Origin: a virus
Taxonomy: Duplodnaviria; Heunggongvirae; Uroviricota; Caudoviricetes
Strand: one strand, 5' to 3'
Virus record (IMG/VR): IMGVR_UViG_2534681835_000014
Span: 1-21,025 of that record
DNA length: 21,025 nt
Positions 11,574 through 12,238 of this stretch are shown in pieces. The notes beneath the pieces were generated by a model. That model was not told the DNA's origin. It did no database searches and saw only the letters and a list, made by a program, of their open reading frames with translations. Positions within the stretch are counted from its first letter, which is position 1; every line of letters begins with the position of its first letter. The position numbers and the translations under genes were made by a program.

Positions 11574-11819
11574 GTGACAACGAAGCACGCCAAAAAACCA
11601 CAATCTCACGCCCTTGATTTGACAGAACACTGGCTGAGGGTGGCGATAAAAATCATCGACCGCAACGCCGGGGAAGGATACGCGAAAGCACATCCCGAAC
11701 TGATAAGCGCATTCATGACCACGACGGCGGCAAACTTTGCCACGCTGACAGAACGGGAGATTGCCGAAGCGGAACAGGTAACAACCATCAACGTTAAAAC
11801 CGGAGAGGTGGAATCATGA
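11574..11819 (+). CDS. hypothetical protein (81 aa)
   Basis: GTG start 11574. Stop overlaps the start of the SSB-like gene. Confidence 0.4.
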   Translation: MTTKHAKKPQSHALDLTEHWLRVAIKIIDRNAGEGYAKAHPELISAFMTTTAANFATLTEREIAEAEQVTTINVKTGEVES

Positions 11820-12238
11820 CAGCACAGATAGCAGCTTACGGGCGGCTGGTGGACGACCCGCAGGTAAAACAGACCAGCAAGGGCACACCAATGACGCTGG
11901 CACGTATGGCGGTATCGTTGCCATGTAGTCAGGCGCAGGATGGGCAGGCTACGTTATGGCTATCGGTGATGGCATTTGGCAGACAGGCCGAAGCACTGGA
12001 AAGGCACCGCAAGGGTGAACTCCTGAGCGTGGCGGGTAACATGCAGATCAGCCAGTGGACTGGGCAGAACGGAGAAACGCGGCAGGGCTGGCAGGTTATC
12101 GCAGACAGTGTAATCAGTGCGCGAACGGCGCGACTGGGCGGCAAAAAAGGTCAACAGGGCCAGGCTACTGACGCGCTGAACAGGGCAAAACAACAGGCGG
12201 GGAATGATGATCCGTACGGGGATAACATACCGTTTTAA
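11816..12238 (+). CDS. single-stranded DNA-binding protein-like (OB fold with acidic C-terminal tip)
   Basis: 140 aa. OB-fold-like core (...WLSVMAFGRQAEALERHRKGELLSVAGNMQISQWTGQNGETRQGWQV), Gly/Gln-rich linker, C-terminus DDPYGDNIPF resembling the SSB DDDIPF tip. Confidence 0.7.
   Translation: MTAQIAAYGRLVDDPQVKQTSKGTPMTLARMAVSLPCSQAQDGQATLWLSVMAFGRQAEALERHRKGELLSVAGNMQISQWTGQNGETRQGWQVIADSVISARTARLGGKKGQQGQATDALNRAKQQAGNDDPYGDNIPF

Follow-up and report, generated by a model that had tools for sequence, protein, structure and literature searches.

We analyzed a stretch of viral DNA of 21,025 nucleotides (IMG/VR record IMGVR_UViG_2534681835_000014, positions 1 to 21,025; hereafter the window) in which a lambdoid prophage is interrupted by a second mobile element, a phage satellite. 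One gene of this satellite, ssb, encodes a single-stranded DNA (ssDNA) binding protein (SSB) of 140 amino acids whose C-terminal tip resembles that of the bacterial host. The gene and the parts of its product are:

11816..12238, + strand: ssb coding sequence (CDS), ATG start, 140 amino acids, TAA stop, C-terminal end ...AGNDDPYGDNIPF
11816..12127, + strand: OB-fold ssDNA-binding domain, residues 1–104 (Pfam, AlphaFold2, Foldseek and pairwise alignment)
12128..12205, + strand: linker, residues 105–130, ARLGGKKGQQGQATDALNRAKQQAGN, 26 amino acids, proline-free and net basic
12206..12235, + strand: acidic C-terminal tip DDPYGDNIPF, residues 131–140, an SSB-Ct-type partner-binding motif (family consensus, entropy and codon changes)

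A Shine-Dalgarno sequence, GGAGAGG, lies 6–7 nt 5' of the ATG. By profile searches the product is an SSB-family protein: it scored 59.2 bits against the Pfam model PF00436 SSB (gathering threshold 26) over residues 5–99 and 63.9 bits against the NCBIfam model TIGR00621 'ssb' (cut-off 53.95), and it matched PHROG 44 'single strand DNA binding protein' at 8e-39. With phmmer it matched 29 distinct SSB sequences in the PDB and no other protein type, the top match being Thermotoga SSB (1z9f, 2.8e-11), with E. coli SSB (1eqq) at 4e-7. The satellite protein is identical to RefSeq WP_000126699.1, named 'single-stranded DNA-binding protein' by PGAP in E. coli O111:H8 strain 8E (NZ_CP077465.1), and its coding DNA is 100% identical to the annotated CDS in that genome, with which the full length of the window shares 99.93% identity. 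The models for housekeeping gammaproteobacterial SSBs were not reached (PRK09010, 34.1 bits vs a cut-off of 260; PRK08763, 38.4 vs 246), and the host's own ssb is a gene separate from the satellite's.

To describe the fold, we built an AlphaFold2 model from an alignment of 84 sequences. Residues 1–100 were modeled with a predicted local distance difference test (pLDDT) score of 91–96, giving strands at 3–11, 16–19, 25–36 and 44–54, a helix at 55–62 and strands at 69–82 and 88–100. This order, four strands, a helix and two further strands, is that of the OB fold. The tail, residues 101–140, had low pLDDT (52–64), the linker being at 50–65 with a weak helix prediction at residues 117–127. All of the best 50 Foldseek matches in the PDB were bacterial SSB OB domains (probability 1.00; target-normalized template-modeling score 0.66–0.83). 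An earlier note on this DNA had described a 140-residue OB-fold-like protein at 11816–12238 and had named a structure prediction lacking an OB fold among the results that would speak against it; the profile scores above their cut-offs, the confident AlphaFold2 OB fold and the SSB matches from Foldseek all bear the description out.

The same note had called for an alignment with E. coli SSB (EcSSB), for which we took ssb of E. coli K-12 (b4059) from NC_000913.3. The two proteins are ~30% identical and differ in length, 178 amino acids in EcSSB and 140 in the satellite. Three of the four aromatic residues that stack on DNA are kept, EcSSB W54, F60 and W88 pairing with satellite W48, F54 and W81, and W48 and F54 are near-invariant across the 84 homologues. 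The L45 loop of the satellite protein is 3 residues shorter than that of EcSSB. Read from the C-terminus (satellite/EcSSB), the last ten residues are F/F, P/P, I/I, N/D, D/D, G/D, Y/F, P/D, D/M and D/P. Counted back from the terminal Phe, the two proteins thus share the I-P-F end, an Asp at −4 and an aromatic residue at −6 (identical or conservative), and the satellite tip departs from that of the host at −3, −5 and −7. On this alignment the satellite tip is host-like, yet not host-identical.

The ending is distinctive within the window, where none of the other stop-to-stop segments (271 in all, six frames, minimum 40 amino acids) ends in PF or IPF. It is also a property of the subfamily. Among the 120 closest listed homologues, 113 reach full length and terminate in F; the final ten residues of these 113 read DDPYGDNIPF in 43, DDPYGDDIPF in 19, DDPYGDGIPF in 16, DDPYEDEIPF in 8 and DDPFSDDIPF in 6, with other variants in the remainder; the subfamily consensus is D[DE]P[YF]xDx[IVL]PF. 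When 1.84 billion representatives were searched exhaustively, 6185 matches were obtained; the best 150 include many fragments, and in 77 of these 150 the last residue is F, usually within an ending of the form [FY]-[DN]-D-x-[ILV]-P-F. In a diverse set of full-length homologues, entropy was 1.52 bits over the last seven positions, 1.98 in the OB core and 2.90 in the linker; F140 is uninformative in this comparison because the set was chosen for ending in F.

Codon changes point the same way. Among three diverged satellite ssb copies, the overall ratio of non-synonymous to synonymous substitution (dN/dS) was 0.13–0.20. Between the window and a copy from an island of capsid-forming type (described below), the ten tip codons carry six synonymous changes and one non-synonymous change, and synonymous change in the tip is saturated between the diverged copies. 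The linker is indel-prone in the family, and its dN/dS exceeds 1 in the same pair. Judged by this conservation and these codon changes, the C-terminal tail has come down from the SSB family and is maintained by purifying selection. The likeness to the host ending proposed in the earlier note (DNIPF here, DDIPF in E. coli) is thereby extended to the whole subfamily. In the same pair of copies, residues 1–51 are identical (11816–11968 in the window and L003 9001–9153 in the capsid-forming-type island), and beyond residue 51 many positions differ, as does the length of the linker. An identical start followed by a diverged remainder suggests mosaic intragenic recombination between satellite types.

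The surroundings of ssb place it within a satellite and, within that satellite, among the genes for replication. The relevant features are:

5448..15706, + strand: whole satellite, a helper-embedded phage-inducible chromosomal island (HE-PICI) of ~10.2 kb, with a 12-bp identity block, TTGGATGGAGGG, at each end
5448–5459 and 15695–15706: att-like identity blocks, TTGGATGGAGGG
4450–5517 and 15699–16817: GpA_ATPase part and GpA_nuclease part of the helper large-terminase gene, terL
9482..11287, + strand: D5_N/DUF5906/Pox_D5 primase-helicase (P4 alpha-type), the satellite's replication initiator (Pfam, NCBIfam, PHROG and annotation)
11299..11523, no strand assigned: origin-like iteron array, ten copies of ACTGTTCACC with at most one mismatch, in both orientations (pattern count)
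11574..11819, + strand: open reading frame (ORF) of 81 amino acids, phrog_1231 of unknown function (ORF list and PHROG)
12251..12276, + strand: intrinsic-terminator-like hairpin AGAAGCCGGA-GCAA-UCCGGCUUUU followed by a T-run, 13 nt past the ssb stop
12273..12439, + strand: cos-like copy of 167 nt, 91.6% identical to helper prophage 3781–3946

The element interrupts the large-terminase gene of the prophage (GpA-type, lambda A-like) between the ATPase and nuclease domains, with the prophage lysis genes upstream of it and the portal, capsid-fusion and tail genes downstream. Its content runs from a tyrosine integrase, a helix-turn-helix regulator, Bro-N, an Icd-like gene, small ORFs and DUF4222 to the primase-helicase, the 81-aa ORF and SSB, and continues after SSB with a 75-aa ORF, a fusion of ClpP-like protease and major capsid protein (12896–14785) and two small ORFs. 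Nearly all of these genes lie on the + strand, one small YlcI/YnfO gene being opposite. The survey by Tommasini, Mageeney & Williams (2023, PMC10111431) divides HE-PICIs into four zones, integration, Bro, replication and late, and this layout is found here, the late zone holding a captured capsid gene. By gene content and layout the element is a helper-embedded PICI of the type of Tommasini et al. 2023. The earlier note had called the gene satellite-encoded, and that label is justified because the ~10.2-kb element that splits terL matches the HE-PICI configuration.

The insertion site itself may be of a type outside that survey. In the searched text of that paper, the named A-gene sites lie in proteins of the Terminase_1 family; in the part of its supplement text that was searched, the att core TTGGATGGAGGG did not occur and no GpA site was named, and no description of this exact terminase integration site was found in Nakamura et al. 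2021. P4-type C4/isrK immunity RNAs have been reported for some HE-PICIs; at Rfam gathering thresholds no structured RNA, these included, was detected in the window, and no tRNA genes were found in it.

Within the element, the primase, the iterons, the 81-aa ORF and ssb form a co-oriented run that ends, after ssb, in the terminator-like hairpin. The iterons occupy the 286-bp gap from the primase to the 81-aa ORF. ACTGTTCACC matches 12 times across the window, and 10 of these matches fall in 11299–11523; chance would give 1.2 for the window, and 12 was not reached in any of 100 shuffles. The array also contains a perfect 23-nt inverted repeat (11298–11320/11426–11448). The array probably marks the satellite replication origin, as expected downstream of a PICI primase. 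The 81-aa ORF shares the four bases ATGA with ssb, its TGA stop overlapping the ssb start codon, which suggests that the two are translationally coupled. It had no match in Pfam, NCBIfam or PADLOC. Upstream of ssb in the capsid-forming-type island it is 84% conserved (L003 8480–8686), and the DUF927-type PICI described below is without it; its product could be a replication accessory or a partner of SSB. Downstream of ssb, the + strand hairpin was missed by a simple terminator scan and is clear on folding 50 nt, over which it reaches −21.9 kcal/mol (z −3.5). The gene is thus the last of the replication zone, placed between the origin-like array and a cos-like packaging site.

The helper counterpart of that site, 3781–3946, lies directly upstream of a small-terminase-like gene and contains GGGCGGCG, the first eight bases of the phage lambda cohesive end; because this octamer is present, we call the helper stretch and its satellite copy cos-like. 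A second, shorter cos-like copy follows the capsid-fusion gene at 14810–14917 (86% identity over 108 nt); the helper has exactly the same G-rich core, ACGGGGCGGGCGGCGCGG. The two satellite copies are direct repeats that flank a 2.5-kb captured capsid module, and each is preceded by a terminator hairpin, the stem sequences being unlike. This pairing could be a relic of late-gene acquisition or could provide two packaging starts. The satellite capsid fusion is 52% identical to the helper fusion (18329–20500) and lacks the first ~66 residues of the helper protein and a ~35-residue insert between its protease and capsid domains. As the sole morphogenetic gene of the satellite, it is a candidate for capsid remodeling or capsid competition.

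Single-base differences distinguish the window from strain 8E. Relative to that strain it lacks one base of an A-run at 6120 (L001 9721) and another at 11285 (L001 14887); the former deletion splits the satellite integrase into ORFs at 5619–6131 and 6152–6856, and the latter affects the final codons of the primase. Additionally, a 1-bp insertion at 20069 (L001 23670) leaves the helper ClpP/capsid fusion intact in the window, where it is frameshifted in the 8E annotation. These indels reflect one of two things: genuine mutations that inactivate or restore a gene, or sequencing errors at homopolymers in one of the assemblies.

The gene is widespread. At least 80% of segment 9400–13000 is present in 81 of 5426 complete E. 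coli genomes, and ssb homologues, annotated as SSB, occur in 1812 of the 5426, at up to six copies per genome, with 2356 of 2359 matches on chromosomes. They recur in satellites of other architecture. A variant of 136 amino acids, 75% identical to the satellite SSB and indexed in 8909 blocks of the collection, occupies the same slot in the order DUF4222, D5 primase, two small ORFs, SSB and PerC. Its island adjoins pntB and encodes a capsid protein, an S78 protease, a portal, a head-completion protein, a connector, HNH, TerS and TerL, which by gene content is the layout of a capsid-forming PICI (cf-PICI). Another variant, of 149 amino acids and 77% identity, comes after a DUF927 primase; its island runs Int-AlpA-...-ProQ-PerC-antiterminator-Q, a layout that on the same grounds is classical PICI-like. 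Across the three architectures SSB holds 75–77% identity while the primase falls to 48% or switches family, and the 81-aa ORF is shared with the cf-PICI type alone among the satellite types compared. SSB is a portable, generic module of enterobacterial satellites that is independent of any one initiator.

Other sources of the gene were considered. A tblastn search of 50,697 phage records found no relative of the satellite SSB above ~32% identity; an origin in a sequenced phage was rejected on this result, which also means that the clade did not simply come from a known helper phage. Among 1003 matching plasmid records, ten carry a subfamily copy at 60–86% identity, one of them a 'plasmid' of 4.9 Mb that is evidently a chromosome, and the other plasmid SSBs fall below 60%. 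Identity as a plasmid leading-region SSB was likewise rejected, the satellite gene being chromosomal and outside any leading region with psiB and ssDNA promoters.

Much of this is already known. Existing annotation and one survey paper already supply the protein with its name and with its place in the replication zone of PICIs; the survey assigns 'Primase, SSB and DUF5906' to that zone, co-localized with mapped origins, and gives HE-PICI gene profiles in the order '...DUF4222,Primase,SSB...' (PMC10111431). The survey bins SSB by Pfam family only, and the replication-zone SSBs of HE-PICIs, cf-PICIs and PICIs in it are the same gene as ours, with nothing different in kind. No description of tip conservation, linker features or selection in a satellite SSB was found in the searched literature, and the cf-PICI, SatelliteFinder and EcCIMP1 papers do not mention ssb.

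Second SSB genes with conserved tails have been familiar in mobile elements since the work on plasmid ssb genes. The closest experimental analogue of the satellite protein is SsbF of the F plasmid, which co-localizes with host SSB and partly complements ssb mutants (PMC9849209). Both are second SSBs with a conserved tail, encoded by a mobile element in a cell that has its own essential SSB. They differ in context: SsbF belongs to a leading region driven by ssDNA promoters and carrying psiB, whereas the satellite SSB lies beside a primase and an iteron origin. A second point of comparison is the SSB of phage HK620, which needs its last six residues, NDYPPF, for function and whose tip stimulates the cognate Sak4 annealase (PMC5928155). 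Both SSBs are encoded by mobile elements of E. coli. However, HK620 SSB is partnered with Sak4, while neither Sak4 nor another recombinase is encoded beside the satellite ssb, and the satellite tip is nearer to the host consensus than NDYPPF.

Taken with family membership, the OB fold, three of the four stacking aromatics and the selected tail, the position of the gene in the replication zone argues that the satellite SSB is probably a functional accessory replication factor of its helper-embedded PICI. P4 replication in vitro reportedly requires the alpha protein, host SSB and the DNA polymerase III (Pol III) holoenzyme, according to Diaz-Orejas et al. in 1994. On induction of the helper prophage, the satellite genes would be expressed through helper late read-through, from promoters of their own, or both. 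The D5/P4-type primase-helicase, of superfamily 3 (SF3) type, would open the iteron origin directly upstream of ssb, and the SSB would coat the ssDNA exposed at satellite forks through its OB fold. The terminal Pro-Phe and the free carboxylate would fit the hydrophobic pockets of Pol III chi, PriA, DnaG or ExoI. By motif conservation, the tip may thereby bring host replisome proteins, above all Pol III chi, to satellite DNA, and tip-dependent binding of chi, PriA, ExoI, RecQ and DnaG is what we infer for the protein. By analogy with plasmid SSBs, it may also top up a limited host SSB pool at a time when the replicating helper, the replicating satellite and SOS-related ssDNA all draw on it. The suggestion in the earlier note that a satellite copy could support its own replication fits this position by primase and iteron origin, as well as the recurrence of the gene in other satellites.

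Several observations weigh against a replication role of this kind, or against its being a large one. In EcSSB, P176 and F177 of the tip sit in a hydrophobic pocket of the partner and the flanking Asp residues contribute to binding, chi R128 contacting D174 and chi K132 contacting D172 (PMC3045619). The satellite protein has Asn (−3) and Gly (−5) at the positions of D174 and D172 and retains a single Asp, D136, of the DDD triad; because the triad is mostly lost, the contacts R128-D174 and K132-D172 may be weakened. EcSSB W40 is replaced by C37 and the tetramer-interface His55 by L49, which bears on the predicted binding mode and oligomeric state. The linker of EcSSB is 56 amino acids long and rich in Gly, Gln and Pro, whereas that of the satellite is less than half as long, and its short, proline-free, basic character may change cooperativity and partner access. 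SsbF is dispensable for conjugation efficiency (PMC9849209), and by this analogy the contribution of the satellite SSB may be small. Because its integrase carries a 1-bp deletion relative to 8E, the satellite copy in the window may be immobile. Lastly, the searched literature holds no functional, biochemical or genetic data on any satellite SSB.

The conserved tip admits other readings. It might mainly serve a partner encoded by the satellite, its own primase-helicase or the 81-aa protein, and not host proteins. Stimulation of Sak4 by the HK620 SSB tip (PMC5928155) is a precedent for such a cognate pairing, and the ATGA overlap, the conservation of the 81-aa ORF by ssb in the cf-PICI type and the departures from the host tip at −3, −5 and −7 agree with it. 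We nevertheless consider it unlikely: the SSB keeps its identity alongside a primase that is only 48% identical or of the DUF927 family, and in islands without the 81-aa ORF, and [FY]-[DN]-D-x-[ILV]-P-F is the general bacterial consensus, which would be expected of a tip that targets conserved host pockets. The protein might also interfere and not recruit, titrating host SSB-interacting proteins or displacing host SSB from ssDNA, and so favor the satellite SF3 replisome over the DnaB-dependent replication of the helper or dampen SOS and recombination; competition with host SSB for partners was the other suggestion of the earlier note. The host-like IPF tip would suit this, the short basic linker and reduced acidity could shift partner selectivity, the clade is frequent in satellites and absent from the 50,697 phage records, and a link has been drawn between SsbF and the suppression of SOS induced by conjugation (PMC9849209). 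A replication role, however, explains the position by the origin more simply. Additionally, PMC10111431 has HE-PICIs rely on the helper to replicate the composite before the satellite excises, which would make sabotage of helper replication partly self-defeating. Interference thus appears quite unlikely. Improbable, too, is a more specific version in which the protein is not a mere extra SSB but a selective competitor occupying ssDNA and some of the pockets of host partners; that replisome parts are thereby channeled to DnaB-independent SF3 forks, at the cost of helper DnaB/DnaG replication or of SOS and recombination, is just as hard to credit.

Two further readings set replication aside. Several defence systems sense phage SSBs, and the protein might trigger SSB-sensing systems (Retron-Eco8, AbpAB, Hna, DARNA) or serve them as a decoy, or it might protect satellite ssDNA from nucleases. 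The gene lies in the replication zone, outside accessory and defence hotspots, and a PADLOC scan of SSB and six neighboring small proteins gave 0 matches, on which a role in a defence system was rejected; a defence-related function in this wider sense is very improbable. Given the split integrase, ssb could also be a decaying passenger gene without present function. The ORF is intact and identical to a RefSeq protein, however, synonymous change in its tip is saturated, and one complete E. coli genome in three carries the gene. With dN/dS at 0.13–0.20, a pseudogene or passenger gene was rejected, and we regard decay as extremely improbable.

An accessory role in satellite replication, assisted by host partners, remains the reading that we prefer. 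Were the selective competitor true, it would be a new mode of satellite–helper interference, acting through the SSB interactome. As it stands, the satellite SSB is a correct but ordinary observation that matters little as a discovery. What it confirms is that enterobacterial satellites, HE-PICIs, cf-PICIs and classical PICIs, commonly carry an SSB of their own with a host-type tail, a portable component of the replication module.

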